Assembly: GCA_963819655.1 (NCBI GenBank) | Contig: CAWFXA010000002.1 | Span: 704,001 to 768,000, forward strand | Source of the DNA: an uncultured Chloroflexia bacterium | GTDB lineage: Bacteria; Chloroflexota; Limnocylindria; Limnocylindrales; CSP1-4 | Length of the DNA stretch: 64,000 bases | Direction: 5' to 3' | Shown: one piece after another, positions 8,800 through 34,753 of the stretch | How the letters are laid out: every line of letters starts with the position of its first letter | Position numbering within the stretch: the first letter of the stretch is position 1 | Notes under the pieces: model-generated | Seen by the model: the letters and a program-made list of their open reading frames with translations, nothing else | What the model was told of the DNA's origin: nothing | Database searches by the model: none | Program-made: the position numbers and the translations under genes

Positions 8800-8856
8800 C
8801 GATTCCCGGACGCTTGGCGCCCACGATCCTCGCATCCGTTACCGAGGGATTCCGAC

Positions 8857-17868: not shown

Positions 17869-17914
17869 GTGGAGCCGACACTCGGATTTGAACCGAGGAC
17901 CTGCTGTTTACGAA
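17869..17914 (-). repeat. att site (duplicated 3' half of tRNA-Thr)
   Basis: GTGGAGCCGACACTCGGATTTGAACCGAGGACCTGCTGTTTACGAA identical to 34678-34723; identity stops at the anticodon loop. Confidence 0.95.
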
Positions 17915-18042: not shown

Positions 18043-18165
18043 AAAGCCCGGTTGACCTTGTCACGCCTTCTTAGCCTCGCGTAACGCGGTTCCTCGGCCT
18101 TGAGAAAGGCGACACTCGGCTTCGTGACGCCGAGTGCCGCCACTAAATCTCTGGCTGCGGCTCCC

Positions 18166-19402
18166 ATGGTCGCTTGGCGAAACCGGATCGTCGGCCACGC
18201 CGATGTGCCGCCGGCCGACCTGGTGCCCAACCCGCGCAACTGGCGAAGCCATCCGCCCGAGCAGCAGCGTGCGCTGGCCGGAGCCCTGGCCGAGGTCGGC
18301 TGGGTGGCCGAGGTGCTGGTCAACCGGACGACCGGCAACGTGGTAGACGGTCACCTGCGCATCGAGCTCGCCCTGGCCCGTGACGAGCCGACCGTGCCGG
18401 TCACGTACGTCGAGCTGACCGAGGACGAGGAGCGGCTGGTGCTCGCCAGCCTCGATCCGCTGGCGGCGATGGCGACCGCCGAGCAGGAGCAGCTCGCCGC
18501 GCTGCTGGCCGGGCTCGAGCCCGCCGACGCCGCGCTCGGGGCGCTACTCGAGGATCTCGCCAGCGAGTACGAGATAGAGTCAGATCCGGTCGGGACTCGT
18601 CGACCCGGACGATGCGCCACCGGTGCCGGATGAGCCGTACGTCGAGGCCGGGGATCTCTATGCCCTCGGCGAGCACCGCCTGTTGTGCGGCGACGCCACG
18701 AGTGCAGTCGATGTGAGCAGGCTCCTCGGCGACGACGAGCACGTTGACCTGATGTGGACCGATCCACCGTATGGCGTGGCCTACCAGACCAAGCTATCGG
18801 TCGAGGAGGCCGTCGCCCGTCACCGGCGGACGGACGGGCTGGAGGTCCCCAACGACCAGCCCGACGACATCCCGGCACTGCTTACGTCCGCCTTCGGCCT
18901 CGCCCCGCTGCGGCCGGGCGGCTCGTTCTATGTCGCCTCGCCTTCGAGCGGCGACGCGCTGCCCGCCTTCTACGCGGCTTTGGCTGCCGCTGACATGCCC
19001 GTCCGGGAACAGCTGATCTGGGTCAAGGATGTGTTCGTGATGGGCCGACACGACTACCACTACCGACACGAGCCGATCCTCTACGGCTGGAAGGAAGGCG
19101 CCGCCCATGCGTTCGCCGGTGGGCGTGACCAGGACACGGTGTGGGAGATCCCGCGACCACGGCGCTCCGAGGAGCACCCGGTGATGAAGCCCGTTGAACT
19201 CGTCGCTCGCGCCCTCGCCAATAGCAGCCGCACGGGCGACCTCGTGTACGAGCCGTTCGCCGGTTCGGGCAGCACGATCATCGCGGCGGAGCAGACCGGG
19301 CGGCGCTGCGTAGCGCTCGAGATCGATCCGCGCTACGCCCAGGTCGCCGTAGAGCGCTGGCAGGCGTTCACTGGGGACACGGCGGTCAAAGTCGATGGCT
19401 AG
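18166..19402 (+). pseudogene. ParB-like domain + N4/N6 DNA methyltransferase fusion, split by a frameshift near 18580
   Basis: ParB-like PNPRNWRSHP..VVDGHLR in 18166-18633; MTase HRLLCGD, TDPPY, HPVMKP, EPFAGSGST in 18623-19402; linker GLVDPDDAPPVP reads in the second frame upstream of its GTG. Confidence 0.75.
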
Positions 19403-19459
19403 ACACGATCCTTCCATCGTGTCGCCCTACCATCGCCCACGCCGTACCGGAGCTAGCGC

Positions 19460-20918: not shown

Positions 20919-20974
20919 TTGATGGGGCGGTCCTGGCGTCTGCAACCTGGGCCTTACACGATGACCAGATCGTG

Positions 20975-21277
20975 ATGATGGACCCGACGACCGTGTACTT
21001 CGTCGGCAACCGCCTGTGGTGGTCGGTGGCCCTCTTCTTGAGTCCGATCGCGGGAGCGATCGCCGGTCAGCCCGTGGTTGCGATCCTGGCTGCTGCCGTG
21101 CTGGTGCTGCCCTCGTTCGTGCTGTTCGACAGCGACCGCCCGTGGTGGCCGGATCAGGTCAAGGGTCTCCCGCAGGACCAAGCGCGAATGCGCTCAGAGA
21201 CACGCAAGCTCACCATCGCGAGCGGGGCTGCACTCATCGCTGGGCTAGGGGCCGCGCTGCTGTTGCCGTGGGGATAG
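20975..21277 (+). CDS. Small membrane protein
   Basis: MMDPTTVYFVG..; three hydrophobic segments. Confidence 0.5.
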   Translation: MMDPTTVYFVGNRLWWSVALFLSPIAGAIAGQPVVAILAAAVLVLPSFVLFDSDRPWWPDQVKGLPQDQARMRSETRKLTIASGAALIAGLGAALLLPWG

Positions 21278-21387
21278 CGCCGCTTTAGGACACCGTTCGT
21301 CCGGCTAGGAACGAGCTCCGGAAGCCATGGAGTCCCGTGAGCCCTGGATCGTGGGCGAGCGTCCCCGGATGCCACTCCCGCTCCTCC

Positions 21388-22143
21388 TCACAAACCCGGC
21401 CCCTCCCACCTGGCCTGCAACCACCTCGGGCTTCCGAAATGCCCCTCGATCAAGTTCTCGAGCCCCGGCGGGCCTTCATATCGGATGACGACGACGTTAT
21501 CGAGTTCCGCGATAACCGGGTCGACGAAGCGCGCGCCGGTCGACTCGATCCAGGCTTGCTCGGCCTTCACCTGTTCGAGGAAACCTTCGAGCTCCTTCAG
21601 GCTCCAGGTCGCTTGGCGGACTTCGACCGGCCCATCGAGCGGGAGTGCCACTAGTGCCGCCCGATGTCGCTCAAGGTTCGCCTTGAACTCGACCACGGCG
21701 CCCGATGCCTTCTGATTGATGTACGCCGTTGCGAAGTCGTCCGGGAACTCCTCCCCGTACGTGCGGAGCTGCACGATCAGGCTGTTCGGCCAGCGACGCG
21801 ACATGAGATCGGCCAGTTCGTCGGGCATGAACGGGATGCCATATTGCTCGGGGACTAGCGCGGCCGGGTCGTCGGCCACGGCTCGGACCCATGCCTCGTC
21901 GGCTCGCAGGCCATACTGCTCTCTTATCTCGATCGCCTCGGCGATGTCGGCCTCGAGAATCGCCGTCGGCGTCGGCTGCATGGTCGGAGTCGTCGCGGTG
22001 TCAGCGGCTGGCGAGGCCGGAGCATCTACGCAGGCGCTCGACACAGCGACCACGGCAAGCGAGAGAGCCGCGGCTGTAAGAGCAAAGCGATGCGATCGGA
22101 CCATCGAATCGTGAGATGTCGCCAGTGGTTGGATCCGCATCAT
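21388..22143 (-). CDS. Cassette gene: putative lipoprotein
   Basis: Signal peptide with lipobox-like VSSAC, followed by a Thr/Pro-rich linker; lies between repeats 21352 and 22184. Confidence 0.7.
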   Translation of the reverse strand: MMRIQPLATSHDSMVRSHRFALTAAALSLAVVAVSSACVDAPASPAADTATTPTMQPTPTAILEADIAEAIEIREQYGLRADEAWVRAVADDPAALVPEQYGIPFMPDELADLMSRRWPNSLIVQLRTYGEEFPDDFATAYINQKASGAVVEFKANLERHRAALVALPLDGPVEVRQATWSLKELEGFLEQVKAEQAWIESTGARFVDPVIAELDNVVVIRYEGPPGLENLIEGHFGSPRWLQARWEGPGL

Positions 22144-22252
22144 TCTCGCCTTGTCCGTGCTAGCACGGTACGGCGCCGTGCCTTGCCAAAAGGTCCGGGA
22201 ATGTCACCCGCTCAGCGATAGGCAGGGACCTACCACCAGGATGGGTCGATGC

Positions 22253-22861
22253 CTACCCATTTCGTGGTCGAACGCCAGTCCTTGCGTATGCGAGAAGACC
22301 GCCGAGAAGTCCCGCAAGAACTGCGGGGAATGTGACCCAAGACACCTCAGGGTTGGCGTCGGGCGGTGTCGTCGATGTGTCAGGCGGCCGTAGGCGGAAG
22401 AGTGCAAAGACCTCCGGCTCCGAGATGCGCTCGGCAAACGGAAAGGGCGGCCCGTCGATCCATGCCGCGGTATTTATCCGCTGCCCGAAGGCCGATATTC
22501 CGAGCGCGAGCGCGATCCGATCCCCTTTACGCGCCATGAGGATGTGGTCGGAGCATTCGAGGTATGCAAGGTCCCGAAGTGTCATGGTGCTCTCGAAAGG
22601 GCCCCGGACCGCGTGTTGAACACGTAGGGTGAAACGGCTGAAGGCACCCTGTTCGTCCCGCCATGGGGACCCGGCGTCGACTGCAGTGACTCTGCCGATG
22701 ACGACCCTATCCGCTGACGTCGCATGCTCACGGAACGACGGCACCGGGCCATCGCATTCAGCCAGCACGCCGGGCGCCGATAGGAGCGCGGCTGCCAGGG
22801 CCAGGGTTGCCGCGGTGCCGAGCGGGACGATCGATCGTGACCGCGGCATCCGGGGGGGCAT
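22253..22861 (-). CDS. Cassette gene: secreted, C-terminally anchored protein (TIMP/NTR-like)
   Basis: Signal peptide ending VLA-ECDG, ADRVVIGRV strand, PPDTST + TM + basic tail. Confidence 0.65.
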   Translation of the reverse strand: MPPRMPRSRSIVPLGTAATLALAAALLSAPGVLAECDGPVPSFREHATSADRVVIGRVTAVDAGSPWRDEQGAFSRFTLRVQHAVRGPFESTMTLRDLAYLECSDHILMARKGDRIALALGISAFGQRINTAAWIDGPPFPFAERISEPEVFALFRLRPPDTSTTPPDANPEVSWVTFPAVLAGLLGGLLAYARTGVRPRNG

Positions 22862-23049
22862 CGCACGGTTCCACAAACTTCGAATCGGCGATTCGAACGC
22901 GGGACTTTGCCGTCCCGTATCGGCGCTGCATGACACGACGTCTCGGCGGCGCTCGGTGTGTCAGGGTGCAGTGTTGACTCAGTGTCCGCCAATGTCACCT
23001 GGGCGATGGGGCCGACTCCGACCAGCGACGTCCGCTGGAAGTGTCTCAG

Positions 23050-23319
23050 TCAGTTTGAGTCGGATTCCCGTTTCGCGATGATCCGAGCCCGGAGGGCTCG
23101 CGCCTCCTCAGGCATGGGAGTCAGAGGGGCGCCGACCGCGAGCCACTGGAGAAAGACTTCACCGCAGGACTCGCAATCGAGCACCGCTTCGCATTTGACG
23201 CCTGGATAGGGCGATACGGCGGATGCGTATAGCAATTCACCAGGCCGCATTGGATTCCCGCTGTTTGGACAACTCCTGGGGCGCGGGACTCCGCTCTCTG
23301 TATCGTCCATCAACGGCAA
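23050..23319 (-). CDS. Cassette gene: small Cys-containing hypothetical protein
   Basis: Best ORF filling the interval between repeats 22975 and 23349; CESC motif; start uncertain. Confidence 0.5.
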   Translation of the reverse strand: MPLMDDTESGVPRPRSCPNSGNPMRPGELLYASAVSPYPGVKCEAVLDCESCGEVFLQWLAVGAPLTPMPEEARALRARIIAKRESDSN

Positions 23320-23395
23320 GTCAACGAGCGGGCGACAGCCCGTCGGTGTGGCTCAGTGTTCGGGAATGTCACCTGGATGGTTAGTCCCTGGTCCG

Positions 23396-24013
23396 CTAGG
23401 GCGTGAGGGATGGCAGCCTAAACGGAGGATCCGGCGCCATCGATGGATTCGGGTTGAAGCCCTCCTGTCCCGTCTCGGCGTTGGGACCGCCATAGCCCTC
23501 CGGGGCGAACGTCCAATGTTGGCCACCGATCACGACGCACACGGGGTTGTCCGCCCAATACCCGGCGTAGTCGATCCGCCCGGCAAGCTGCACGACCCAG
23601 GCAGGGGCGTCCGTTAGGAGCTCGGGCTCGGTCCCGAACATTCGCGCATAGCGCGGGACGTCGCGAGCGCGAGCGACCAGACCCATCCCCACGACGCTGT
23701 CGAGGCGGGGCGGTCTATCAACACCGCATGCCTTGAGCGCAGCGGCTGCCGCAGGATCGGGATGCGATCTCGAAACGGGCTCGATCGTCCCATCGATCGG
23801 AGCACTCGCTAGTGGCCGGACGGGTGGCGGCGTCGCGGAACCCGAAGCTCCAGGATCGTCGGTGGCGACCGCCTGCGATGCCGTGATCGACGCCGGTGAA
23901 GTCGATGCCACGTCACCCGAATCGACTGTCGTCGGACTTGTTCCTTCGAAAGGACCGGAGCAGCCGAAAACCGCAAGGGCAACCAGGACCGCAGCACCCC
24001 TTCGAACGATCAT
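23396..24013 (-). CDS. Cassette gene: putative lipoprotein
   Basis: MIVRRGAAVLVALAVFGC lipobox, Ser/Thr/Pro linker. Confidence 0.7.
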   Translation of the reverse strand: MIVRRGAAVLVALAVFGCSGPFEGTSPTTVDSGDVASTSPASITASQAVATDDPGASGSATPPPVRPLASAPIDGTIEPVSRSHPDPAAAAALKACGVDRPPRLDSVVGMGLVARARDVPRYARMFGTEPELLTDAPAWVVQLAGRIDYAGYWADNPVCVVIGGQHWTFAPEGYGGPNAETGQEGFNPNPSMAPDPPFRLPSLTP

Positions 24014-24091
24014 CCGGTCACCATCGTACCGGCGTTACAGGGCGTATCTAGACGGCCTGTTGGCTTAGTGTCCGGGAATGTCACCTCGTCA

Positions 24092-24502
24092 CTAGGCGAG
24101 AAGGACAAGCACCCGCGTCACATGGTCGACGGTGAACTTCGGATCGGCAAGCTCGAATACCAGCTTCGTCAACAACTCCACGGCGCTCGCGTACGCGGCC
24201 GAATCACTGCGTAGCAACCGCCCCGAATCCGGCCACACGATTGCGACCTTCTCCGTGTGCAGCTCGTGGAGACCCTCCCAGAGGGAGTCGCGTAAGGCGT
24301 CCCAGATGCCTCGATGGACGGGCGGGTCCAGCGGGAGCACCTGACGCACGGACCCGACGAAAGTGTCCCAGCTGTCGGGGGCCCCGGGAAGCGTGTACAC
24401 GGGCCAACCGTCCCGCGTCAAAGCCGCGACCAAGTCGGGTAGGGACACGCCTGTGCGTTCGTGGACACCGTACGCCGGGATAAGGAGGTCTCGTTCATCC
24501 AC
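24092..24502 (-). CDS. Cassette gene: barstar-family (RNase inhibitor/immunity) protein
   Basis: LPLDPP..WDALRDSLWEGL..KVAIVW barstar-like motif. Confidence 0.75.
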   Translation of the reverse strand: MDERDLLIPAYGVHERTGVSLPDLVAALTRDGWPVYTLPGAPDSWDTFVGSVRQVLPLDPPVHRGIWDALRDSLWEGLHELHTEKVAIVWPDSGRLLRSDSAAYASAVELLTKLVFELADPKFTVDHVTRVLVLLA

Positions 24503-24547
24503 CTGGCCAAAGTACAGCCCGGACGGTTGGCTTAGTGTCCGGGAATG

Positions 24548-24946
24548 TCACCCCGGAGAGGTTGCGGAAACGGCATCGATCAGGGCCGGTCGGCATCGTG
24601 CGATGAAGCCCTCGACCCTAGCCGCAGCTACGTCCGCATCGGCGAGCATTTTGAGCTGGTCGGACCGCGAGATGCCTGTCTCCTCGGCGATGAACGCGCC
24701 CTCAGGGCCGGTCGCATCAATGGTCCAATTCGGTTCAGGGTCGAGCTTGAGGGCGACGTCGACCACCAGAAGCTCGCCCATCGGCGCGGCTGGGTCGACG
24801 AAGACGAGCAACAAAGTGAGCGCGTAAACGCGGGAGGGCTTCTCCTCGATGTGAGAGTGGATTTTCGGTCGGGCCGTGCTGATGGATACGGCTGTGGCCT
24901 CGAGGACCGCTCGAATCCTGCTTCGATGGTGATCGAGGCTCGTCAC
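24548..24946 (-). CDS. Cassette gene: hypothetical protein whose stop codon lies inside the repeat
   Basis: GTG at 24946 preceded by TATCGT-N6; TGA supplied by GGTGAC of repeat 24528. Confidence 0.65.
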   Translation of the reverse strand: MTSLDHHRSRIRAVLEATAVSISTARPKIHSHIEEKPSRVYALTLLLVFVDPAAPMGELLVVDVALKLDPEPNWTIDATGPEGAFIAEETGISRSDQLKMLADADVAAARVEGFIARCRPALIDAVSATSPG

Positions 24947-25045
24947 GGGCTCACGATACAGGCCGTCGTCGTGGCAAAGTGTCCGGGAATGACACTTGAG
25001 GGCATGCGACTTCGGTTGCACCACGCGTAGCACTACGCTTAGCGC

Positions 25046-25324
25046 ATGGATGGAAGCCTGCAGTACAGATTGGGCGACCGAGTAATAGTCCGGCGCGATC
25101 GAGAGTTCGGACTTGGACCGTGGCCATCTGAGCCAAGCGGCACCATCGGGGAGCCCCCGGACTCGACAAATGCGCGGATCTGGCGACGGACGAAGACGAC
25201 CTCCGGGTGGCGGCGCTCTTACTGGATTCTGTTCGACGAGCCTCAGATCGATGCTGAAGGCGATGGGCCGTATGAGATGTCCGAGGTGCTTGACCTGTAC
25301 CTCGAGCGGGAACCCAGCGACTGA
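25046..25324 (+). CDS. Cassette gene (opposite orientation): small SH3-like hypothetical protein
   Basis: YRLGDRVIVRR..YWILFDEPQIDAEGDGPY; TACGCT-N6-ATG. Confidence 0.7.
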   Translation: MDGSLQYRLGDRVIVRRDREFGLGPWPSEPSGTIGEPPDSTNARIWRRTKTTSGWRRSYWILFDEPQIDAEGDGPYEMSEVLDLYLEREPSD

Positions 25325-25391
25325 CTACAGCACTTAGCCATGGCTTAGTGTCCGGGAATGTCACCTGAACCTTCCACCGGGAGAGTCCCCA

Positions 25392-26117
25392 TCAGAAGGC
25401 TTGGCATTCTCCTACCCAGACGCGCTCCCCATCCACGGTTCCGACTCCCACATGAACGACCCCCGAGTCCCACAGGTTCAGACCGACACGCTCCTCGCTG
25501 TCGATCTGGAAGCAGTACACCGGCGAGGCCGGGTGCTGGTTGTAGGGGGCCCAGAAGATTTCGCCCTGGACCAGGCGCGGCCAACCGCCGAGCTTGGTCC
25601 CGCTCGTCGCACTCCCGATGACCTCGTGCGCATCGCGGCTTCCGAGGAGACCTTGGAGGCTATCGAAGTCGACGGTGGCGACCAGATCGTCCCAGTCCGG
25701 GTAGTCCTCGACTACCTCCCAGTCGAGCTGCCTCGGCCGGATGCCATCGATGACCCGACCGTCGACCGCGTGGAGTTCGTCGAGCGAGCGGTAGGCGCGA
25801 ACGGCCCAACCATCGCCGTTGGGACGGTCGTTAGGTCGGTCGAGGAACCCGTTGTCGTCGGCGATCCAGAACGAGACTAGGGCGAAGCCCGCCAGTTCCG
25901 GAGGCACGAACCTGGCTTCGGTCAGGTTAATCTGGGCGAGGGAGGCCATCGCCCGTCCCTCAACAGTTGGCCAGTCCTCACCGCGCCCGATGACCGAGAC
26001 GCGCCCGAGGCACGAGCGATAGGGATCGTCGCTGGGTCTCCCGATGACTACTCGTCCGACCGACGCCGGGCGCCTAATCGCGTTCCGGATCGCGTCGATC
26101 GAGTCGGGGACGAGCAT
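25392..26117 (-). CDS. Cassette gene: YwqG/DUF1963-family protein
   Basis: WPTVEGRAM..LAQINL, TKLGGWPRLVQ, FQIDSE..WDSG motifs. Confidence 0.8.
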   Translation of the reverse strand: MLVPDSIDAIRNAIRRPASVGRVVIGRPSDDPYRSCLGRVSVIGRGEDWPTVEGRAMASLAQINLTEARFVPPELAGFALVSFWIADDNGFLDRPNDRPNGDGWAVRAYRSLDELHAVDGRVIDGIRPRQLDWEVVEDYPDWDDLVATVDFDSLQGLLGSRDAHEVIGSATSGTKLGGWPRLVQGEIFWAPYNQHPASPVYCFQIDSEERVGLNLWDSGVVHVGVGTVDGERVWVGECQAF

Positions 26118-26190
26118 CGATTGAGGGTAAGCGACCGTCGAGTGGCAAAGCGTTCGGGAATGTCACCAGAGATGGGACGAACGCTCAGGC

Positions 26191-26670
26191 CTAGAGCCTA
26201 GGGCCTTTGCCCCACTCCCAGTGAACGAGTCCGGCTATCGCGAGCCCGTCGATGATCCCCCAGAGTGGCTCGGGCACTTGGCCCTCGATGTCTATCGCGA
26301 CGAAGCCAGGCGATCGCCACTCATGTGGCCGATCGGAAGCCGCCAAAGCGCCGTGGAGCTCTTCGTGCCGATTCGGCTCAACGAACGCCACCCGCAATAC
26401 GAGTCGATCCGACGATTGGACGACGGGACCAAGCACCGAATCGAACCGGCCGGCAGCGCGTCGTAGACGGACGACGTCTCCTAGTGCATAGCCGTACGTG
26501 AAGAAAGGCAGGCAGCAAAGCTCGTACATACCTTCGCCCAGGTCGCGCGCCCACAGCTGCTCGTATCGGCCGGGAAAACCGTGGTCGGCGAGGTCAGCCT
26601 GCAGGATGGAATTCGCGCGGTCGCGCCAGACAGGAAGCTCATGCGTCGCGATCTCGTTGTCGCCTGCCAC
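26191..26670 (-). CDS. Cassette gene: DUF4265-family protein
   Basis: EQLWAR..YELCCLPFFTYGYALGDVV motif. Confidence 0.8.
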   Translation of the reverse strand: MAGDNEIATHELPVWRDRANSILQADLADHGFPGRYEQLWARDLGEGMYELCCLPFFTYGYALGDVVRLRRAAGRFDSVLGPVVQSSDRLVLRVAFVEPNRHEELHGALAASDRPHEWRSPGFVAIDIEGQVPEPLWGIIDGLAIAGLVHWEWGKGPRL

Positions 26671-26804
26671 GTCTTGAGACTAAGGCAGGGACAGCCCTTC
26701 GCCATGGCAATGCGCGATGTCACTCGGACCGTGACACTACGAGCAAATCGCGCAGACCATTGCGGCACGCGTACTGATCTGACGATGGTTCACCTGCCTG
26801 CCCC

Positions 26805-27188
26805 CTATAGCTGTGGCTTGCCGCCGCACGCCGGAAGTTCCGCTTCCTGCACCGGCCCTTCGATGATTCGCGGAAGGGCGTCCCCGCTGATGACGAACGT
26901 CATCGGCCGCGGAGCCCCATTCCGAGGCCCAGGGATGCCCCTGGTGAGCACAACTGCGTCCGCCGGGACCCACGAGTAGTCGCCTTCCATCGCGAGCTTT
27001 AAGAACGCTTCCCCGGCCGCGTCCAGTTCAGCCTTAGTGAAGGCGGAAGCGGAACAGGGACCGAGCTGAACATCGGGGGCGAGTGCGATGGGCACGTCCG
27101 ACCGGTTGACCAGCACATAGTCCGGAGTGGCCGCACATCCTCCGGCGAAAAGGACGATGGCACCAATGGCGCGGACGGCGGTCATCAT
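26805..27188 (-). CDS. Putative lipoprotein
   Basis: MMTAVRAIGAIVLFAGGC lipobox; CATACT-N6-ATG. Confidence 0.6.
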   Translation of the reverse strand: MMTAVRAIGAIVLFAGGCAATPDYVLVNRSDVPIALAPDVQLGPCSASAFTKAELDAAGEAFLKLAMEGDYSWVPADAVVLTRGIPGPRNGAPRPMTFVISGDALPRIIEGPVQEAELPACGGKPQL

Positions 27189-27342
27189 GCCGCGAGTATG
27201 CGGCGAGGCACGAGCGCCTCGACGTGGATGGCCGGGTTCGTCAAAAGCGTGCCGAGGAAGCTCTCGGATCGCGAGGTATCCTGTTGTTCGTCGGGGCCGT
27301 GATCGGGGTGGTGTGGCTGGTCCGCAAGCAACGGATGCGGCG

Positions 27343-27534
27343 TTGAGCTGGCTGTTAGTTCTCCTGCCCGCGTCCGGCGTCCTCATCGGCACCCTCATCG
27401 GATCCATGCGTCGAGGCGACCCTCCTACAGAGGTTCGCCGCCGCCTTGTGGAGGCCGCCGTCGGGGGTCTAATCGCGGTCGTGATCATCGTGGCCGTCAT
27501 CACCATTGCGGGCGGTCGGCTGGTCTGGCCGTAG
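27343..27534 (+). CDS. Small membrane protein
   Basis: Two hydrophobic segments; start uncertain. Confidence 0.35.
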   Translation: MSWLLVLLPASGVLIGTLIGSMRRGDPPTEVRRRLVEAAVGGLIAVVIIVAVITIAGGRLVWP

Positions 27535-27625
27535 TCCTCGTTTCGCATCCTGAAACTGACCCACTACCGGATCAGCCGGACAAAGCAGAAAACTGATTGT
27601 GGGCTGCGGCCGAGGGGAGACGCCT

Positions 27626-28576
27626 GTGGTGACGAACTACATCAGCGAAGAGCTCGGTCGGTTGATCTCGGCCGAGGGCGAACTCGTCGTTGGAACCCAC
27701 ATGAGCCCGCCGCGAGTAATCGGAGATTTAGATCCGCAACGCCCCCAAGACGCGTTCCGGATTGAGTGGGAGATCGCCGCCAGAGGATTAAGGGTGCTTG
27801 TGACCAGATCCGGCGGCCTGTTCGTGCGCCCTCCCGAGAACCTCGTGTCCTCGGGCTTCGAAGGGTTCGACGAGAAGTTCGCGTTCATGTCGGAAGCTGC
27901 GGCAGCAATCAATGTGGTCTTGTGTGAAGCGGCATTGACGGGCGCCGTGTCTAGCCCAGCGTCGCCAGTCCAGATGAGCAGCGGCAAGGTCGTCGATGAT
28001 CACGCGATCATCACCGGAGGCGGAGGCGGCCGCGAGGTCTATCTCGACAGAACCGCTGACATTTTGCTCGACGTGATCGGACTCAAGTGGATGACCTGGG
28101 TGCATGTCGAGCCAGCGTTGTTCGACATCGTGGCGTCTCTGCCGCGAGCACCTCGCCTCTTGGCCATGGCCTCGGCTCTGCCCGAGCTCGTTGTCGGAGC
28201 TTATTCGAACCTGTCACGCCACCACGCCCCAGAGGCAATCGTTGACGGTTGGGTGGTGATCGAGCAGTTGCTCGATGTGATGTGGCAGGAATTTGTCGCG
28301 GGCGTCAGCGAGCCGGGGCGAGCCGAGATCCTCAAGGACACGAGGTCCTTCACGGCTGCGGTCCGCGCCGACGTTCTGCTTACCGCGGGGAAGATCAGCC
28401 CCGATCTGTGGCGAAAGGTGACTAGGGCGCGGAAGTACCGGAACGAGCTGGCACACCGCGCCAGGGTGTCGATTGGCGCCGCCCAATCGGTCTGCTCCGC
28501 AATGCAAAGCACCGTTGAGCGAATCTTGGGGACCACGGTCGATCCGCCCCTCTATATGAGGCATCTGACGTGGTGA
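27626..28576 (+). CDS. Protein with C-terminal HEPN-like motif (possible RNase/defence protein)
   Basis: ARKYRNELAH fits the HEPN R-x4-H motif; preceding helix WVVIEQLL; visibly more A/T-rich codons than host genes. Confidence 0.6.
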   Translation: MVTNYISEELGRLISAEGELVVGTHMSPPRVIGDLDPQRPQDAFRIEWEIAARGLRVLVTRSGGLFVRPPENLVSSGFEGFDEKFAFMSEAAAAINVVLCEAALTGAVSSPASPVQMSSGKVVDDHAIITGGGGGREVYLDRTADILLDVIGLKWMTWVHVEPALFDIVASLPRAPRLLAMASALPELVVGAYSNLSRHHAPEAIVDGWVVIEQLLDVMWQEFVAGVSEPGRAEILKDTRSFTAAVRADVLLTAGKISPDLWRKVTRARKYRNELAHRARVSIGAAQSVCSAMQSTVERILGTTVDPPLYMRHLTW

Positions 28577-28938
28577 ACCAGGGCCCGCAAGCGTCGGGGG
28601 TGAGCTAGGCCCTGGGAGCCACCCGACGTTCCGGATCACTGGCGAACACGCCCGACCCGCCGTTCCTGGTCCGATCTCGGCAGCTCCTCCGTGACCGTCC
28701 TGGGATCTGGTCACTTGCGCCGGGTGTTGCCCTCCCGAGGTGATTAACCCACCGACACTATGAGCGGGAATTGGATTGGTGATCACCAGCCGACGACGAC
28801 TTTCGTACAACCTGGTACGCCTCAGGAGCTCTATCCTCACTGCCAGGTTTGCAGCAACAACCAGGGCCTTGAGGCAATCAATCTATTGAGGCGGGGGGAG
28901 AACCCGTACCCGTAACGCTGAGGGAACCGCGGCCAAGA

Positions 28939-29343
28939 ATGGAAGAGGCGAGCATGGAGACCGGCTTTCCCTGGGGAATCCTGCTGGTCTCAGACTCCAC
29001 ATCGAAGGAGCAGATACCTCCCTGGGAGTCCGAGGATCACCAGGTAGCGGTAAGCGGGTCGGCTCTGGTACTTCGCGTTCGTCATGAGCAAGAAGGCCCC
29101 GTTCAAGTTCACCTGTGGGCCAACACCTCACCGGAAGCTGGAAGCCCAGTCTTTGTCGGTTCGTTGGATGTGCCGAGCGGGGTATTGACTGTTGGGGACG
29201 CGCTTGGGCGGAGGCAGGTGTCTGCGCGCGTTGACCCTGGCCCGACGAGAATACAAATCCGCGCCGATCGTCCTCGCGAGCCTACGCGAGTAGACGTAAT
29301 TGTTCCTGATCGCGCAGAACCGGGTCATGGAGGAGGCAGCTGA
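28939..29343 (+). CDS. Hypothetical, immunity-protein-like beta-rich protein
   Basis: VRHEQEGPVQVHLW..VFVGSLDVPSGVLTVGD; start may be 28954. Confidence 0.55.
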   Translation: MEEASMETGFPWGILLVSDSTSKEQIPPWESEDHQVAVSGSALVLRVRHEQEGPVQVHLWANTSPEAGSPVFVGSLDVPSGVLTVGDALGRRQVSARVDPGPTRIQIRADRPREPTRVDVIVPDRAEPGHGGGS

Positions 29344-29425
29344 AGACGATCCCGGCATCGTGTTGCTTTTGGCCGCGACCTGAGTGACTGATGGCGGCGT
29401 CCAATCCGCTTACGGAGACGCCGCC

Positions 29426-30358
29426 ATGACTCCCCACTACCTCCCGGCCACCGCTTCGGACGACGTCCCTGGCTGGCAGCGAACGGTTCTCGCATTCCTG
29501 AGCGAAAAGGAACGCCGATCGGGCTCCCGGCGGACGATCGAGAGCTACGCTCGGATGCTCTGGCCGTTCCTCACGAGGGTGGGTGCGCCAAATCTGGTGA
29601 CGGCCGCCCACGTCCTGGCCTGGGCATATGGAGTGGGGGCGTCGGGGCGCGAACCGTCTTCCGCGACCGTCGGGGCACGAATCGCCTGCCTATCCTCCTA
29701 TTACCGGTTCCTGATCCGGATGAACGTGACGACCTCGAACCCGTGCGACGCGCTCGAGCGCCCGCGCACGACGCAGGCCGTGGCGCGGGGGCTGAGCGCG
29801 GAAGAGGTCCGTCGCCTGCTGGCGGTCGTGCCCGATACCGTGGCCGGCCGACGCGACCGGGCGCTACTGCTGTTCTTCGTCCTCACCGGTCGGCGCCGAT
29901 CGGAGGTCATCGGCCTGACCGCCGGCGACATCAGCGTCGAGGGGGACACCGCCTTCTACTCATACCGCGGCAAGGGGGGCAAGCGCGGCCGCCGTGAGCT
30001 TCCGCGGCCGGCATTCGAGGCGCTTTGTGTGACGTTATCGGACGCGAGTCTCTCCTTGGCCGAAATGGAGCCGGCGGCGTCGCTCTGGCAGGCGGCAGCG
30101 GGAGAGCGCGGCATCACCAGCTCCACCTTCTACAACCGGTTTCGACGCTACCTCCGGGCAGCGGACCTCGCTCCTACCGGGTTGCACATCCTCCGCCACA
30201 GCGCCGCGAAGCTGCGGCGTGATGCCGGGGCGTCGATCGAGTCAGTGAGCAGCTTTCTGGACCACAGCTCGCTCGCCGTCACAAGCGTCTACCTGCGGAG
30301 GCTCGAGGGCGAGGCGGATCGAACATGGCCGGACGTGGCGGTCGCGATCGGCGTCTGA
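29426..30358 (+). CDS. Tyrosine recombinase (XerC/D-like), candidate cassette recombinase
   Basis: Catalytic set: TGRRRSE (R), RGKGGK (K), HILRH (H-x-x-R), LDHSS (H), TSVY (Y); N-terminal SAM-like domain; no IntI insertion. Confidence 0.92.
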   Translation: MTPHYLPATASDDVPGWQRTVLAFLSEKERRSGSRRTIESYARMLWPFLTRVGAPNLVTAAHVLAWAYGVGASGREPSSATVGARIACLSSYYRFLIRMNVTTSNPCDALERPRTTQAVARGLSAEEVRRLLAVVPDTVAGRRDRALLLFFVLTGRRRSEVIGLTAGDISVEGDTAFYSYRGKGGKRGRRELPRPAFEALCVTLSDASLSLAEMEPAASLWQAAAGERGITSSTFYNRFRRYLRAADLAPTGLHILRHSAAKLRRDAGASIESVSSFLDHSSLAVTSVYLRRLEGEADRTWPDVAVAIGV

Positions 30359-30391: not shown

Positions 30392-31993
30392 TCAAGACGG
30401 CCGTCTAGGGCTGACGATGTCGTCGCCGAAGATGCGCCACGCCTCCGCCATGAGGTCGATCTCCCCGGGATCCCTTCCGGTACGGCCATGGGGATCGCTG
30501 TCCCAGCTGTCCCCACCGTCCGGGCCGTCCGCGGGGTGGGACGGCGGGGACAGCGATTCCCGGATACGCACCAAGGAGATGATCCGGTCTGATCCATGGT
30601 GCGCTGGGAATCGAACGTCGATCTGTTCGACCTTGCGTAAGTCGGGTGCGAGCCGCCGCAACGCCGTGCCGAGCCCAGCCGCGTTCATCGGCCAATCCCG
30701 ACGCTTGCGGACGGACTCGTCGGCGTGCGGGTAGAGCGCCCGAAGCAACTGGGTGGCCGTACCGGACCAGCTATCACGGTCGCGCAGCAGCTCCACGATC
30801 GGCGCCGCCAGGGGACTCGCCTCGAGCGTCAGGGCATGGCTCTGCCTGCGATTGGTGCGATACGCGGCGACGAATGAGCCGGTCGGCCAACGGAGGGCGC
30901 CCTCGGCCGCGGTTACCCATCGTGTCGCATCGGCCATGCGCGGCAGGCGTCCGATCGCGACCTCCTCATGACGCGCGAACGACACGGAGACGGCGTCGAG
31001 CAACGCGCCCAGGATGGTAGGTCTGTCGGCCTCGAACGCGGGCCAGAACTCCTCCTCGGGACGACGGAGACGATCGGGGATGGTCGCGAGGTCGACGACG
31101 ATCGCCCGATCCATCAGGTCCGCCCGGGTGACGATGCCGCCGATCCCGTTCAGGATGACCGGTCGGGCGACATGGACCAGAAACTCCTCGTCGTCCGAAT
31201 ACAGCTGCCGCGTCGAGAAGCCCGCCCCGGTCGCCAGACGCGCGATCGCGTCGGACTGCCACGCGGCGAGGCTGGACACGTTGTCGAACGACGCGATCCA
31301 GCTGTTGCTGGCGGCGATCGCCAAGGAATGCTCGTCGCGGGGCTGACTCCGATCGCCGACCGCGTTGGGGTCGATGAGAAGTCGGAGCAGGCGTGCCGTC
31401 GTGCTCTTGGCGCTGTCCTGCTCGCCGCCGAGGAGGAGCACGATGTATGGGCCGCGCGGTCGGAACGCAGCCAACAGCCACCCGGCGAGGAGGCGGTACT
31501 GGTCGTCGTCCACGACATTGACGAAGGTCCGCAGCTCCTCGAGCGAGCCGCCCGCGCGGGGAGTCGGAAGGGCCTCGAGCCCGCGCGGCCGGCGGAAGGG
31601 GATCGGCGACCGGTCGAGGATGCGCCAGCCGGCGGTATCGATCTCGACGACCCGCCAGCGGTCATCACCGAGATCGAGGTACATCGCTCCGTGGTGCTCG
31701 GCGATCCTCAGGCCGACGCGACGATCGGGTCCATCGAAGTGGCCGATCGCGGCGAGGACGTCGGTCGCCTCGGTGAGCGCCTGGCCTCCCGCCGGTCGGC
31801 CAGTCGCTCGCCAGTGACAGCCCGACAGCCAGGTCCGGAACGCTCTCGATCGAACGCGAAGGACCTCGTGATGGGGCACCGGCTGCGTCGTCAGGACATC
31901 GGCGTACGCGGTGTCGCCATGGTGGAACAGTTCGCTCGCCTCCTGGGCGGCTAGCACGAGTTGAGCGGCCTGGGTCGCCATGCGCTCTGGCAT
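30392..31993 (-). CDS. Replication-associated P-loop ATPase/helicase of mobile elements
   Basis: GEQDSAKST Walker A, FDNVS Walker B, RQLYSD, DLMDRAI, PRMAD motifs. Confidence 0.8.
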   Translation of the reverse strand: MPERMATQAAQLVLAAQEASELFHHGDTAYADVLTTQPVPHHEVLRVRSRAFRTWLSGCHWRATGRPAGGQALTEATDVLAAIGHFDGPDRRVGLRIAEHHGAMYLDLGDDRWRVVEIDTAGWRILDRSPIPFRRPRGLEALPTPRAGGSLEELRTFVNVVDDDQYRLLAGWLLAAFRPRGPYIVLLLGGEQDSAKSTTARLLRLLIDPNAVGDRSQPRDEHSLAIAASNSWIASFDNVSSLAAWQSDAIARLATGAGFSTRQLYSDDEEFLVHVARPVILNGIGGIVTRADLMDRAIVVDLATIPDRLRRPEEEFWPAFEADRPTILGALLDAVSVSFARHEEVAIGRLPRMADATRWVTAAEGALRWPTGSFVAAYRTNRRQSHALTLEASPLAAPIVELLRDRDSWSGTATQLLRALYPHADESVRKRRDWPMNAAGLGTALRRLAPDLRKVEQIDVRFPAHHGSDRIISLVRIRESLSPPSHPADGPDGGDSWDSDPHGRTGRDPGEIDLMAEAWRIFGDDIVSPRRPS

Positions 31994-32308: not shown

Positions 32309-33436
32309 GTGACTGCCTCTCCGCCCCTACCGGCCGTACCGCACTCCTGGTGGACGGTCGCGGAGACCGTCCTGGAGATCGAGCCCGGCGGGCCTGCCCT
32401 CTATTACCGTCGTGGCCTGCGCGCCCCCATCCGGGATGAGCACGGACGCTGGCGCCGCGACGCCGCCGGCCGAACGGCGCTCGAGGCTTTCGGCGCTCTG
32501 CCGATCGCGGACATGTATCGACGGCTCGGGAAGGCCGGTGAAACCGCCGTGCCGATGGGCACCGACGACCGACCGTGGCTGGGCATCTGGCCGGAGCTTC
32601 GCGATTTCGTGTTGACCTTCGGCCCACTGGGTTTCGAGTGGGCAAGGGCGTTCTACGTCGAGAACCCGGAGGCGGACCGGGCGCTGGGTCGCCGAGCCGG
32701 CAGACGCTGGCGGGTCGCCTTTCCCTCGCCTGGCTTCACCCGCGCGACGGTCCGACGAGCCGACCTCCCGCGAAAGGGATCGTGGGCGGATCGAGTGCTT
32801 GTCGGCGACACTACGCTGCCGCGCGACTTCCTCGGGCTTGGTGACGCGGGTCCGTTATGGAACCACCAGGACGACCTTCGGCGCGCCCTCGAGCTCGTGA
32901 AGGTGCTCGCGGAGGACGACCCGAGCCCGCATCGAATCCTGGCGGCGGCCGGTGGCCTGCCGAGGGTCGGCGGTTACGACATCGCGGATCACGAGCTACG
33001 CGACCCGGTCGATCGCCGCTGGCTCGATGCGATCCGACTCCCGCGCGCAACCGGCGCAGGTGAATGGTCGCCATTCGAGGCACACGTGACGCACGTCGAT
33101 TGGCCAGCCGCGGGACGCTTGATGCTCGCGGAGTACCTCTCAGAGCAGCTGGCGTGGACGAGGGTCGATGTCGGGCTCGACGAGCGGGGTCGCTTCCGGT
33201 CCCGATGGACGCCGCGGTCGCTGCTCGAGATCATCTATCTGCAGCTGCTCGAGCATGTCGAGCAGCGACTCCAGTTCGGCGTCGGCGAATGCCCCCTCTG
33301 CGGGGGTCCGATCCTGCGCACGCGAGCCAGTGAACGCACGCGCAACCGGGCGCACCACGGCTGCGCCAACGTGCTCCGCAAGCGTCGCCAGCGCGATCGC
33401 CAGCGGTGTGCGAGCGCCTCAGAGGCGCCGGCATGA
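32309..33436 (+). CDS. Hypothetical protein with C-terminal Zn-finger (CGNR-like), probable element regulator
   Basis: CPLCG..HHGCANVLRKRRQR; ATGA overlap with the integrase. Confidence 0.65.
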   Translation: MTASPPLPAVPHSWWTVAETVLEIEPGGPALYYRRGLRAPIRDEHGRWRRDAAGRTALEAFGALPIADMYRRLGKAGETAVPMGTDDRPWLGIWPELRDFVLTFGPLGFEWARAFYVENPEADRALGRRAGRRWRVAFPSPGFTRATVRRADLPRKGSWADRVLVGDTTLPRDFLGLGDAGPLWNHQDDLRRALELVKVLAEDDPSPHRILAAAGGLPRVGGYDIADHELRDPVDRRWLDAIRLPRATGAGEWSPFEAHVTHVDWPAAGRLMLAEYLSEQLAWTRVDVGLDERGRFRSRWTPRSLLEIIYLQLLEHVEQRLQFGVGECPLCGGPILRTRASERTRNRAHHGCANVLRKRRQRDRQRCASASEAPA

Positions 33437-34593
33437 CTCGGCGTGGCGCCAACGAGGGGACGATCCGCCAGCGCAAGGATGGTCGCTGGGAGGCTCGCGT
33501 GCCGCTGACCGGACCGGACGGGAGGCGAACGCGTCGGTCGCTCCTCGGGCGCAGCCGGGCCGATGTCCGCGACCGGCTGCAGCAGGCCCTCCGAACCGAA
33601 GCGGGGGGCATGCCATTGCCGTCCGGGCGGCTGACCGTCGGCGCCTTCCTCGACCTGTGGCTGCGAGAGACGGTCCGCCCGACCGTCCGTCCCTCCACGT
33701 ATCGGAGCTATGAGGGGATTGTCCGGGTCCACCTCAAGCCCGGTCTCGGCGGTTACGTGCTCGCGCAGCTCACGCCGCAGCACGTCCAACGGCTGCTCAA
33801 CGCCAAGGCGGCGACGAGCCTCTCGCCGCAGACGGTCGCGTACATCCGATCCGTGCTGCGGCATGCCCTTCGCCAGGCCGAGCGGTGGGGGATGGTCACA
33901 CGGAACGTCGCCAGCCTGGCGGCGCCACCACGGGTCCCGCGCCGCGAGATCCGCCCCCTCTCGCCCGAGGAGGCCCGCATCTTCGTCGAGGCCATCCGCG
34001 CAGACCGTCTCGAGGCGCTCTACCTGCTGGCCATCGGGACCGGTCTCCGCCAGGGCGAGATTCTGGGTCTGGGCTGGCAGGACGTCGACCTCTCGGCTGC
34101 GACCGTCACCGTGCGCCACGCGCTCCAACGCGTAGGCGGCCACCTCGAGCTCGTCCCACCGAAGTCATTGGCGAGCAGGCGTGTCGTTGCCCTGCCCGCG
34201 TTCGTCGTCGGCGCGTTGCATGCCCAGCGTTTGCGACAACGGCGCGATCGGCTCCTCGCCGGATCCCGTTGGCGCGCGGATGATCGCGGGCTCGTGTTCA
34301 CCACGACCGTCGGCACGCCCATGGATGGGATCGCCGTGACGCGACGCTTCCAGGCGGTCCTTCGAGAGGCCGGTCTGCCACACCAGCGGTTCCACGATCT
34401 CCGGCATGCCTGCGCCTCGCTCCTGCTCGCCCAAGGCGTCGCGCCGCGGGTGGTGATGGAGACGCTCGGTCACAGCCAGATCAGCCTGACCATGAACACA
34501 TACAGCCATGTCATCCCTGCCCTCGGGCGGGCTGCGGCGGACGAGATGGACGCCCTACTTGGGGCCGGATCGGGCAGGGGTGTCAGCGGCTGA
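33433..34593 (+). CDS. int: Phage-type tyrosine integrase
   Basis: N-terminal EGTIRQRKDGRWEAR arm-binding domain, TGLRQGE, FHDLRH, LGHS, TMNTYSH; adjacent to the att/tRNA. Confidence 0.95.
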   Translation: MTRRGANEGTIRQRKDGRWEARVPLTGPDGRRTRRSLLGRSRADVRDRLQQALRTEAGGMPLPSGRLTVGAFLDLWLRETVRPTVRPSTYRSYEGIVRVHLKPGLGGYVLAQLTPQHVQRLLNAKAATSLSPQTVAYIRSVLRHALRQAERWGMVTRNVASLAAPPRVPRREIRPLSPEEARIFVEAIRADRLEALYLLAIGTGLRQGEILGLGWQDVDLSAATVTVRHALQRVGGHLELVPPKSLASRRVVALPAFVVGALHAQRLRQRRDRLLAGSRWRADDRGLVFTTTVGTPMDGIAVTRRFQAVLREAGLPHQRFHDLRHACASLLLAQGVAPRVVMETLGHSQISLTMNTYSHVIPALGRAAADEMDALLGAGSGRGVSG

Positions 34594-34622: not shown

Positions 34623-34678
34623 CGCAGGTTCTCTGGGGCAAGCCCCGACCAGGGTGGACGAACCCACGCGTGAAAGGG

Positions 34679-34753
34679 TGGAGCCGACACTCGGATTTGA
34701 ACCGAGGACCTGCTGTTTACGAAACAGCTGCTCTACCGCTGAGCTATGTCGGC
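34679..34753 (-). tRNA. tRNA-Thr(CGT)
   Basis: GCCGACATAGCTCAGCGGTAGAGCAGCTGTTTCGTAAACAGCAGGTCCTCGGTTCAAATCCGAGTGTCGGCTCCA folds as a cloverleaf with anticodon CGT and encoded CCA; TATACT -10 at 34770-34765. Confidence 0.97.

Follow-up and report, generated by a model that had tools for sequence, protein, structure and literature searches.

Integron-like arrays of single-gene cassettes delimited by a 28-bp repeat in a family of Limnocylindrales

Integrons are the textbook system for the capture of single genes, and rAID-1 loci and SCC islands are rarer parallels. The attC sites of integrons are folded and span approximately 57–141 nt; integron arrays that have no integrase in cis are known as CALINs. 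SCC composite islands carry the large serine recombinase Ccr and replication genes at one end of a series of tandem elements, which are separated by short direct repeats and include many units without a recombinase of their own. Xer-dependent modules (pdif modules and IMEX elements) have dif-like sites in alternating inverted pairs. In rAID-1 as described, the genes are co-directional and lie downstream of the recombinase, close homologues of which are reported in Bacteroidales only (10.1101/471110). Assignment to rAID-1 calls for a XerD-like recombinase with more than 44% identity to the B. fragilis reference, directly followed by at least two genes in the same direction. Tycheposons combine a site-specific integrase (tyrosine, rarely large serine) with a replication module and cargo (10.1101/2020.12.28.424599). 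Among the papers searched, none describes the cassette system considered here.

The F array and its host element

The window, a stretch of 64,000 nucleotides from a soil Chloroflexota genome, contains a 16.8-kb element integrated at a tRNA-Thr(CGT) gene (34678–34753, minus strand; tRNA search). The 3' part of this gene includes attR (34678–34723), whose 46 bp recur in direct orientation, with 100% identity, as attL (17869–17914). The integrase of the element, identified by profile search, adjoins the tRNA gene (33406–34593, plus strand). The element thus has the layout of a tRNA-integrated island: its integrase adjoins the tRNA gene, and the repeated tRNA 3' end marks its opposite boundary.

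Within the element lies an array (21352–26730) in which a repeat, here named F, is present in eight strong copies and two degenerate ones, along with nine unrelated single-gene cassettes. The original prediction listed nine copies of a 25-bp motif, which is the core of the 28-bp F site. Eight of them are strong copies, recovered in register by a repeat search on the minus strand at 22184–22211 (28 bits), 22975–23002 (37 bits), 23349–23376 (39 bits), 24061–24088 (33 bits), 24528–24555 (matching both matrix and consensus), 24972–24999 (34 bits), 25341–25368 (39 bits) and 26143–26170 (38 bits); seven copies lie within three mismatches of the 25-bp consensus, with none expected from 100 shuffles. 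The weight matrix is 28 nt long and was trained on 156 copies, and the strong copies score 28–39 bits. The first listed copy (21352–21376, minus strand) is only a degenerate relative below the matrix threshold, agreeing by eye at about 17 of 25 consensus positions. Another degenerate copy, with a deletion of 2–3 nt, was read from the sequence at the array head (about 26706–26730, minus strand); the ungapped matrix gives it no score.

Read in the direction of the cassette genes, the F consensus is TCRG-GTGACATT-SS-CGNAC-RCTGWSYGA; the site is partly dyad-symmetric and its centre varies. As predicted, neither consensus nor matrix scans found another full copy in the window (no matrix matches of at least 10 bits in the 46 kb outside the element). 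The rest of this genome has just one additional good copy, at C3:189497, and two weak ones, paired at C1:421345/422064. Candidate functions as a promoter or terminator were rejected, with no promoter-like sites in 21000–30000 and two terminator-like sites, neither at F. Rejected as well were an attC-like hairpin (eight copies folded as 65-nt DNA gave z from +1.3 to −2.1 and no common structure) and an RNA family, the Rfam search returning tRNA and chance-level matches only.

Each of the eight intervals between the nine listed copies holds one ORF (minus strand in seven intervals, plus strand in one), and the nine cassette proteins have no pairwise similarity at E ≤ 0.01, in agreement with the claim of one unrelated gene per interval. 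Five minus-strand genes encode proteins of 251 aa with a lipoprotein-like N-terminus (21388–22143; no Pfam family), 227 aa with a signal-peptide-like N-terminus (22253–22936), 89 aa (23050–23319), 205 aa with a lipobox-like N-terminus (23396–24013) and about 132 aa (24548–24946), the last four with no family. The sole plus-strand cassette gene (25046–25324) encodes 92 aa and has no family either. The other three, all on the minus strand, encode a 136-aa protein with a weak Barstar-like match (24092–24502; 22.7 bits, narrowly short of the cutoff of 23.4), a 241-aa DUF1963 protein (25392–26117; E 2.9e-8, above cutoff) and a 159-aa DUF4265 protein (26191–26670; E 3.4e-18). We take these matches to represent immunity-type families, which would comprise three of the nine window cassettes, one of them below the cutoff. 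A 29% identical homologue of the 251-aa product is encoded at another recombinase locus (L017), after a diverged F-like site near the recombinase homologue.

Distribution of F and turnover of cassettes

In the same Limnocylindrales family, 152 of the 401 genomes, representing 30 of 49 genera, have F, clustered in arrays; the total of 357 matches compares with about 17 in a reversed control (counted from the table). This tally takes in two unpublished genomes (G409 and G140), and locus L092 of G409 was included in the matrix, synteny, cassette and junction scans. G409 also entered the galK comparison, and none of the individual claims depends on either genome. Elsewhere in the phylum F occurs solely as single copies, in 11 of the 377 genomes, which is the chance level given eight control matches; the scan of related genomes proposed with the original prediction yields arrays in one family only. 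Individual genomes have several F-array loci. No recombinase or Rep was detected near 27 of 34 such loci, and two of the 34 have the Xer-like enzyme described below. Among 80 metagenome contigs with F, none has a tyrosine recombinase or a large serine recombinase (LSR), and one has Rep. Units between F sites are approximately 0.2–2.9 kb long and usually contain one gene. The cargo, surveyed as 132 cassette ORFs from many F arrays, is mixed and mostly without assigned family; it includes SUKH-1, SUFU, beta-lactamase, GNAT, methyltransferase and cyclase families. The F cassette layout is family-wide and integron-like, with a non-attC site.

The content of syntenic arrays is variable rather than fixed in gene order, as predicted. 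Two loci (L106 and L107) have flanks that are 94–96% identical and wholly different arrays, and homology on the right-hand side resumes at the last F; a second pair (L094 and L114) likewise has similar flanks and different arrays. In one genome, two loci (L099 and L105) have two F-bounded cassettes in common, 96.5–97.9% identical and in swapped order. The only difference between two metagenome contigs (L185 and L200) is a 1,463-bp cassette with a single F copy, located between two F sites. Contigs of four public runs carry single window cassettes, with matches ending at the F edges 22185, 22998, 23375, 24086 and 24553; the word shares of the window in public runs are small (0.06–0.12), and these matches bear only on those parts of the array that have contig coverage. 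At the level of sequence comparison, the differing syntenic arrays, the moved cassettes and the presence or absence of a unit between F sites show F to be the boundary of exchangeable, mostly single-gene cassettes in many genomes of one family. Together with the tRNA-Thr repeat, this turnover supports part of the original prediction: the tRNA-integrated element carries exchangeable cassettes of one gene each, in an array that uses neither attC nor IntI.

Two further candidates for exchange were set aside. A joint 22213>24528 on one contig (side 21) was probably a repeat matching twice, and the synteny of C3:189497 with locus L111 has a variable region wider than its F sites.

Homology across F is asymmetric. 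The left arm keeps to the upstream cassette (identity at 195 of 204 positions), the downstream cassette shows homology from +16 to +24 of F onwards, and the 7-nt centre (positions 8–14) often matches neither neighbour. Break points are scattered from +8 to +24, and no one-base break indicative of a single-nucleotide crossover was found in F. These data comprise two whole common cassettes among 166, plus 17 and 6 flank-sharing pairs, some of which are trivial (duplicate contigs or LSR-proximal sites). The pattern is closer to a tyrosine-recombinase overlap region than to the 2-bp crossover of a serine recombinase.

Candidate enzymes and rival readings

The sole recurrent conserved neighbour of F arrays is a module that pairs Rep, a rolling-circle initiator, with an LSR containing Resolvase, Recombinase and Zn-ribbon domains. 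An F array follows this module, in one fixed geometry, in 11 of 13 testable cases, those in which the sequence extends 1.5 kb or more past Rep; in the other two the LSR genes are degraded. None of seven distant LSRs without Rep has an F array, and an F-like palindromic block is common to all 16 LSR upstream regions. We infer that the LSR paired with Rep is the best candidate enzyme for F. A close LSR was found in just 24 of the 401 family genomes. Neither an LSR nor the Xer-like enzyme was found in G026 (91% complete), which has F arrays, or in G392 (80% complete), which has recent cassette shuffling. At galK, an LSR-Rep island takes the place of 9.8 kb of other genes, so a clean attB is not definable there. 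There is no LSR in the window, and this genome (G000) holds only a truncated LSR-Rep module (C2:977077–979133), approximately 240 kb from the array; the window F array is therefore probably static at present or mobilised in trans.

The recombinase adjacent to the array, P0001 (29384–30358, plus strand; Phage_integrase, E 6e-20), is intact and, as originally described, distinct from the integrase of the element; the ATG at 29426 is the start common to its homologues. The protein is Xer-like, with XerD (1a0p) as the closest solved structure, but scores only about 100 bits with XerC/XerD models, far under their cutoffs. Integron-integrase models give 38.9 bits (TIGR02249, cutoff 265) and 27.7 bits (PRK15417, cutoff 435). 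The gene is 3.2 kb from the last strong F, with 3–4 ORFs in between; these include a 325-aa ORF (27599–28576, plus strand) and a 134-aa ORF (28939–29343, plus strand), both with no family.

The homologues of this recombinase have a site of their own, termed X. The palindrome CACGAT-N6-ATCGTG is conserved 40–126 nt upstream of their genes, and DNA homology between the loci ends exactly at X. X arrays at these loci account for 72 matches upstream and three downstream, against one in a shuffled control; no conserved motif was seen past the recombinase stop codon in the homologue loci, the window row excluded. A motif scan of the window found three plus-strand X sites. Site 1 (19404–19421) is an exact palindrome. 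Site 2 (20957–20974) is the distal boundary of an X-delimited segment that holds the F array. Site 3 (29345–29362, one mismatch) is recombinase-proximal; the 134-aa ORF ends at it, and so does the homology that defines the conserved recombinase module. The F array is thus nested between two X sites. We infer that the Xer-like recombinase constitutes a second system, with its own palindrome and upstream arrays, and that the F array is a passenger between X sites.

The original prediction had this neighbouring recombinase (29426–30358) working F itself, on an integron-like platform with F as the attC equivalent, which we consider unlikely. Such a role would fit the placement of F at four loci (the window, L035, L046 and L030), where it lies upstream of the recombinase gene, always in the same divergent arrangement; this exceeds a chance expectation of about 1% (L035 and L046 are paralogous); L035 has 5–6 F sites, the nearest approximately 300 bp from the recombinase start. 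A diverged F-like pair upstream of the L017 homologue, and a hypervariable centre suited to a tyrosine-recombinase overlap region, point the same way. However, the enzyme family has X, where inter-locus homology stops, and its own X arrays; X and F have no convincing common arms. The expected linkage of recombinase homologues to arrays of this repeat did not hold either: F is present at just three of 44 homologue loci and missing at 41 (none in the first four examined), and the enzyme is missing at 32 of 34 F-array loci and on all 80 metagenome F contigs. The distance and intervening ORFs in the window also count against it, and the adjacent recombinase is probably not the F enzyme. It is similarly improbable that a recombinase acts in trans, either host XerC/XerD or another chromosomal tyrosine recombinase, with F as a dif-sized accessory site. 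The 28-bp length, partial symmetry and variable centre of F would suit such a site, and most F arrays lack a recombinase in cis. Genomes in which neither the LSR nor the Xer-like enzyme was found still retain differing arrays at conserved chromosomal locations, and this genome has two further Xer-like genes. Yet the only site of the ATAA-N6-TTAT form, a short motif chosen here to represent dif (C3:558492, a candidate dif), has just ATGTC in common with F, F is limited to one family although Xer is universal, and the LSR-Rep association would be left unexplained.

Least probable in our assessment is that F, instead of being a recombinase site, serves expression between cassettes and that cassette differences arise by homologous recombination or slippage between repeats. 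TGA stops occur in every frame of the family consensus, and GAGG, a Shine-Dalgarno-like tail, often comes next, ahead of the following start codon; one window gene terminates in the TGA of F, and the break points are spread rather than confined to one base. On the other hand, roughly one cassette in four (39 of 156 in a crude count) has an opposite-strand gene, no sigma-70-like promoter or terminator was found at F, F has neither a common fold nor an Rfam family, and a 28-bp repeat is poor for homologous exchange. The strict conservation of F over 30 genera, with an F-like palindrome before every LSR gene, points to recognition by a protein.

In the mechanism that we favour, a site-specific recombinase would bind F and release a circle made up of a cassette and one F, which would then insert at another F, much as integron or SCC arrays do. 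The LSR-Rep module that heads F arrays in other genomes would act on F, and the window array would be carried as a passenger between two X sites of the Xer-like system. From sequence data, we judge this whole reading, with F-delimited exchangeable cassettes, LSR-Rep as the best candidate enzyme and the Xer-like recombinase as a separate X system, about as likely to be right as wrong.

Comparison with known systems and significance

F arrays resemble integrons in their mostly promoterless, mostly co-oriented single-gene cassettes, in their mixed and mostly unassigned cargo, in content that differs between syntenic arrays and in the many arrays without a recombinase in cis. In contrast to integrons, the F array has no IntI, in line with the original observation that neither attC nor IntI is visible here, the F site is shorter than attC and has no common hairpin, and a serine recombinase paired with Rep is the leading candidate enzyme. 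The comparison with rAID, drawn in the original prediction, is a loose one. A XerD-like recombinase near an array with repetitive intergenic sequences is a common feature, as is some immunity-like cargo (Barstar-like, DUF1963, DUF4265, SUKH-1, SUFU). The F array differs in being upstream of, divergent from and 3.2 kb away from the recombinase, in Chloroflexota, in cargo that is not immunity-only but also has beta-lactamase, GNAT, methyltransferase and cyclase families, and in a recombinase with its own separate site X.

Similarly to SCC, an LSR and a replication gene head a repeat-separated series in which many units have no recombinase. Unlike SCC, the F units are small and usually of one gene, there are several array loci per genome, a conserved host target gene was not found for F arrays, and the window array has no LSR; in other genomes, 11 of the 13 testable LSR-Rep modules have an F array. 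With pdif modules and IMEX elements F shares a 28-bp site of two arms and a variable centre and needs no dedicated recombinase in cis, whereas F copies are direct and bear little resemblance to the candidate dif of this genome. Tycheposons likewise build variable islands from an integrase, a small replication module and cargo; they have tRNA targets and multi-kb cargo instead of rows of single genes with a 28-bp repeat.

We tentatively suggest that one Chloroflexota family may harbour two undescribed, nested gene-capture systems, a possibility that falls short of even chances: LSR-Rep F arrays, a serine-recombinase analogue of integrons, and X arrays served by a compact Xer-like module of approximately 1 kb that ends exactly at the palindromic X, X segments being able to carry whole F arrays. 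If true, a short unfolded site used with a serine recombinase and Rep would mean that the gene-capture layout evolved on more than one occasion from different enzymes. Both F and X are compact, and the systems are a possible source of new short-site recombinase tools. The F system would also provide a handle on the exchange of small accessory genes among abundant uncultured soil Chloroflexota, where the exchanged families include beta-lactamase, GNAT and aminoglycoside adenylyltransferase C-terminal domain annotations.

Organisation and distribution of the F site

The cassette array of the window (21352-26730) is built on F, a 28-bp site bounding single-gene cassettes. The repeat described in the original prediction is real: seven copies match the consensus with at most three mismatches, versus none in 100 shuffles, and the in-register alignment of eight copies spans 36 nt. 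The copy predicted first, at 21352, is a relative of F but a degenerate one; an additional degenerate copy is located at approximately 26706-26730. As claimed, each inter-repeat interval contains one ORF, on the minus strand in seven of eight cases, and the cassette genes are unrelated, with no mutual similarity among the nine cassette proteins at E ≤ 0.01. Three of the nine have lipoprotein- or signal-like N-termini. Pfam families include DUF1963, DUF4265 and a weakly Barstar-like domain (one protein each), and the others match no Pfam family.

The proposed tRNA-integrated element was recovered as a 16.8-kb segment that encloses the whole array region, is bounded on both sides by the tRNA-Thr 3' end as a direct repeat of 46 bp (17869-17914 and 34678-34723) and encodes its own integrase (33406-34593). 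The window is rich in G+C (63-72%), falling slightly to 62-66% between 21 and 30 kb. The element begins (18100-19402) with two overlapping genes, an ORF that has a ParB-like nuclease domain and a gene for an N6/N4 DNA methylase. An inverted repeat of 24 nt, with 88% complementarity and arms 24 nt apart, is located at 30490-30561 within a 533-aa ORF downstream of the Xer-like recombinase gene; its match to Rfam is at chance level only. Repeats spaced by 1238 bp (7154-7279 and 8392-8517; 7511-7562 and 8749-8800) indicate two neighbouring paralogous genes, 6392-7561 and 7558-8799.

The 28-nt consensus and matrix of F were derived from 156 copies; read in the same direction as the cassette genes, the consensus is TCRG-GTGACATT-SS-CGNAC-RCTGWSYGA. 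The 19-nt pattern of the repeat, scanned with up to two mismatches against a reversed control, was found in 152 of 401 genomes and 30 of 49 genera of one Limnocylindrales family (Chloroflexota). By our own count there are 357 matches versus about 17 in the control, clustered at 300-1500 bp spacing and frequently situated at contig ends. In a phylum-wide draw, the pattern was present in 7 of 23 genomes of the family; outside it, 11 of 377 genomes contained the pattern, only ever as a singleton, and the control gave 8 matches. By this distribution, F is a family-wide site. Outside the element the matrix has no match in 46 kb of the window, and the rest of this genome (G000) contains a single good copy that stands alone (C3:189497) and a weak pair (C1:421345/422064), at positions syntenic with arrays of relatives.

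Other readings of the F sequence were rejected. The eight window copies have no common fold (z-scores from +1.3 to -2.1), neither promoter-like nor terminator-like signals are present at F, and F matches no Rfam family.

Cassette turnover at F

Comparison of related arrays indicates that F marks cassette boundaries. In two species of the genus (L106 and L107), flanks that are 94-96% identical surround entirely different arrays of nine and six F sites, and the right-hand homology starts at the last F; L094 and L114 likewise share flanks around different arrays, in agreement with the variable cassette content anticipated originally. Two arrays of one genome (L099 and L105) have two common cassettes, 96.5-97.9% identical and in swapped order, whose homology ends inside F. 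Metagenome contigs L185 and L200 differ by a single 1,463-bp cassette together with one F. Two studies, with four public runs between them, yielded contigs that carry single window cassettes at 90-99% identity; these matches end at the F edges 22185, 22998, 23375, 24086 and 24553, past which the contigs carry different sequence, once a further F variant.

Within F, the left arm goes with the upstream cassette at 195 of 204 positions, the homology of the downstream cassette begins at +16 to +24, and the 7-nt centre (positions 8-14) often matches neither adjacent cassette. In these alignments the break is not confined to one base.

A segment of about 1.5 kb adjoining the array locus of L106 and L107 is inverted in G000 (C2:609061-610561), where no F site was found. 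Two F arrays in opposite orientation diverge around a 3.1-kb centre in L095 (G331:C4) and converge across 6.9 kb in L103 (G251:C24); no recombinase was found between the opposed arrays of either locus.

Candidate enzymes: site X and the LSR-Rep module

The Xer-like tyrosine recombinase next to the array (29384/29426-30358, plus strand) is not an integron integrase, as had been stated; its model score is 38.9 bits versus a cutoff of 265 bits. Of the 36 genomes searched within the genus, 5 contain close homologues (65-88% identity). Among species-representative genomes, 44 loci with close homologues were identified, often several per genome, and the expected linkage to F arrays is not supported: F is present at only L035, L046 (paralogous to L035 in the same genome) and L030. 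Alignment of the regions upstream of 29 recombinase genes revealed a conserved leader that ends in the palindrome CACGAT-N6-ATCGTG (site X), which lies 40-126 nt ahead of the start codon. When loci are compared pairwise at the DNA level, the homology covering the gene in most cases runs from the first base of X to just past the stop codon, so the recombinase and its leader constitute a self-contained unit about 1 kb long. X-like sites number 75 in 416 kb, 72 upstream of recombinase genes and three downstream, versus one in shuffled sequence. In L020-L050 and the window, they are arranged as direct arrays ahead of the Xer-like recombinase genes, and some of the same spacers are found at more than one locus.

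The window contains X sites at 19404-19421, 20957-20974 and 29345-29362, and the last two place the F array inside an X-delimited segment (20975-29344); the F array of L035 is nested in the same way. The conservation of X at recombinase genes and this nesting argue that the Xer-like recombinase acts on X rather than F. The array was recognised correctly in the original prediction, but the enzyme assigned to it there is probably not the right one and comes from a family that has its own site.

Two of the loci carry other sequences of note. Past the distal end of the L035 array, a fragment (1-850) contains a HAHH motif, which we take to be typical of AHH-type nuclease toxins. L017 (700-7300; G007) encodes, downstream of the recombinase homologue, repeats of the YD/RHS type in which a C-terminal segment is duplicated and, upstream, a homologue (29% identical) of window cassette 21388-22143 that follows a diverged F-like site.

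A survey of 34 F-array loci with four queries within the available flanks detected the Xer-like gene at two, a large serine recombinase (LSR; Resolvase, Recombinase and Zn-ribbon domains) with a divergent rolling-circle initiator (Rep) at five, Rep only at one, and none of them at 26. Within the family, 24 of 401 genomes encode a close LSR homologue, and LSRs of at least 54% identity are paired with Rep wherever the contig extends far enough. Of 13 modules with at least 1.5 kb past Rep, 11 are followed by an F array in a fixed geometry: LSR, Rep on the opposite strand, F array. Intact LSRs are encoded, for example, in the modules of L094, L114 and L133. Both exceptions have degraded LSR genes. 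One of them is the copy of G000 itself (C2:977077-979133), in which the LSR gene is truncated, its homology beginning at residue 156, and Rep is frameshifted. This copy is abutted by three X sites (C2:975255, 976510 and 977170) in direct order, and an X-linked event may have broken this LSR. Seven distant LSRs without Rep have no F array. Upstream of each of the 16 LSR genes lies a conserved imperfect palindrome, about 40 bp long, in which a right half resembling F is combined with a full-length variant of F in inverted orientation. At the galK island no clean attB was obtained.

These associations make the LSR the most likely enzyme for F, with about an even chance of being the right one. The LSR is absent from most F arrays and most array-bearing genomes. 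Neither it nor the Xer-like enzyme was found in G026 (91% complete), which has arrays, or in G392 (80% complete), which has arrays and recent shuffling. On 80 metagenome contigs with F, most of them short, Rep occurs in the module geometry once, and no LSR or tyrosine recombinase was found. The break pattern within F is closer to the overlap region of a tyrosine recombinase than to the 2-bp crossover of a serine enzyme, but one marker in L185/L200 places the exchange beyond +21. Action of the adjacent Xer-like enzyme on F is unlikely given its own site X, and a host tyrosine recombinase acting in trans appears equally improbable. The candidate chromosomal dif of G000 (C3:558492), its arms GATAA and TTATGTC forming the sole ATAA-N6-TTAT site of the 3.49-Mb genome, resembles F only weakly. 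A role of F unrelated to recombination ranks last and is quite doubtful.

Known systems and cassette cargo

Searches of one literature library retrieved no description of the F-cassette system. In its mode of working the system resembles integrons and SCC islands, yet it lacks the features that define either. What sets it apart from rAID-1 (10.1101/471110) is its geometry, cargo and phylum; tycheposons (10.1101/2020.12.28.424599) have a different unit size and target.

Across 156 cassettes, the median size is 560 bp; crude ORF calling assigns a forward gene to 98, an opposite one to 39 and no clear gene to 19. The majority of 132 cassette ORFs have no Pfam family. The families found are mixed, namely DUF4265, DUF6869, SUKH-1, SUFU, beta-lactamase, GNAT, AadA_C, pentapeptide, methyltransferases, cyclase and spermidine synthase, a profile closer to the cargo of environmental integrons than to a pure immunity array.
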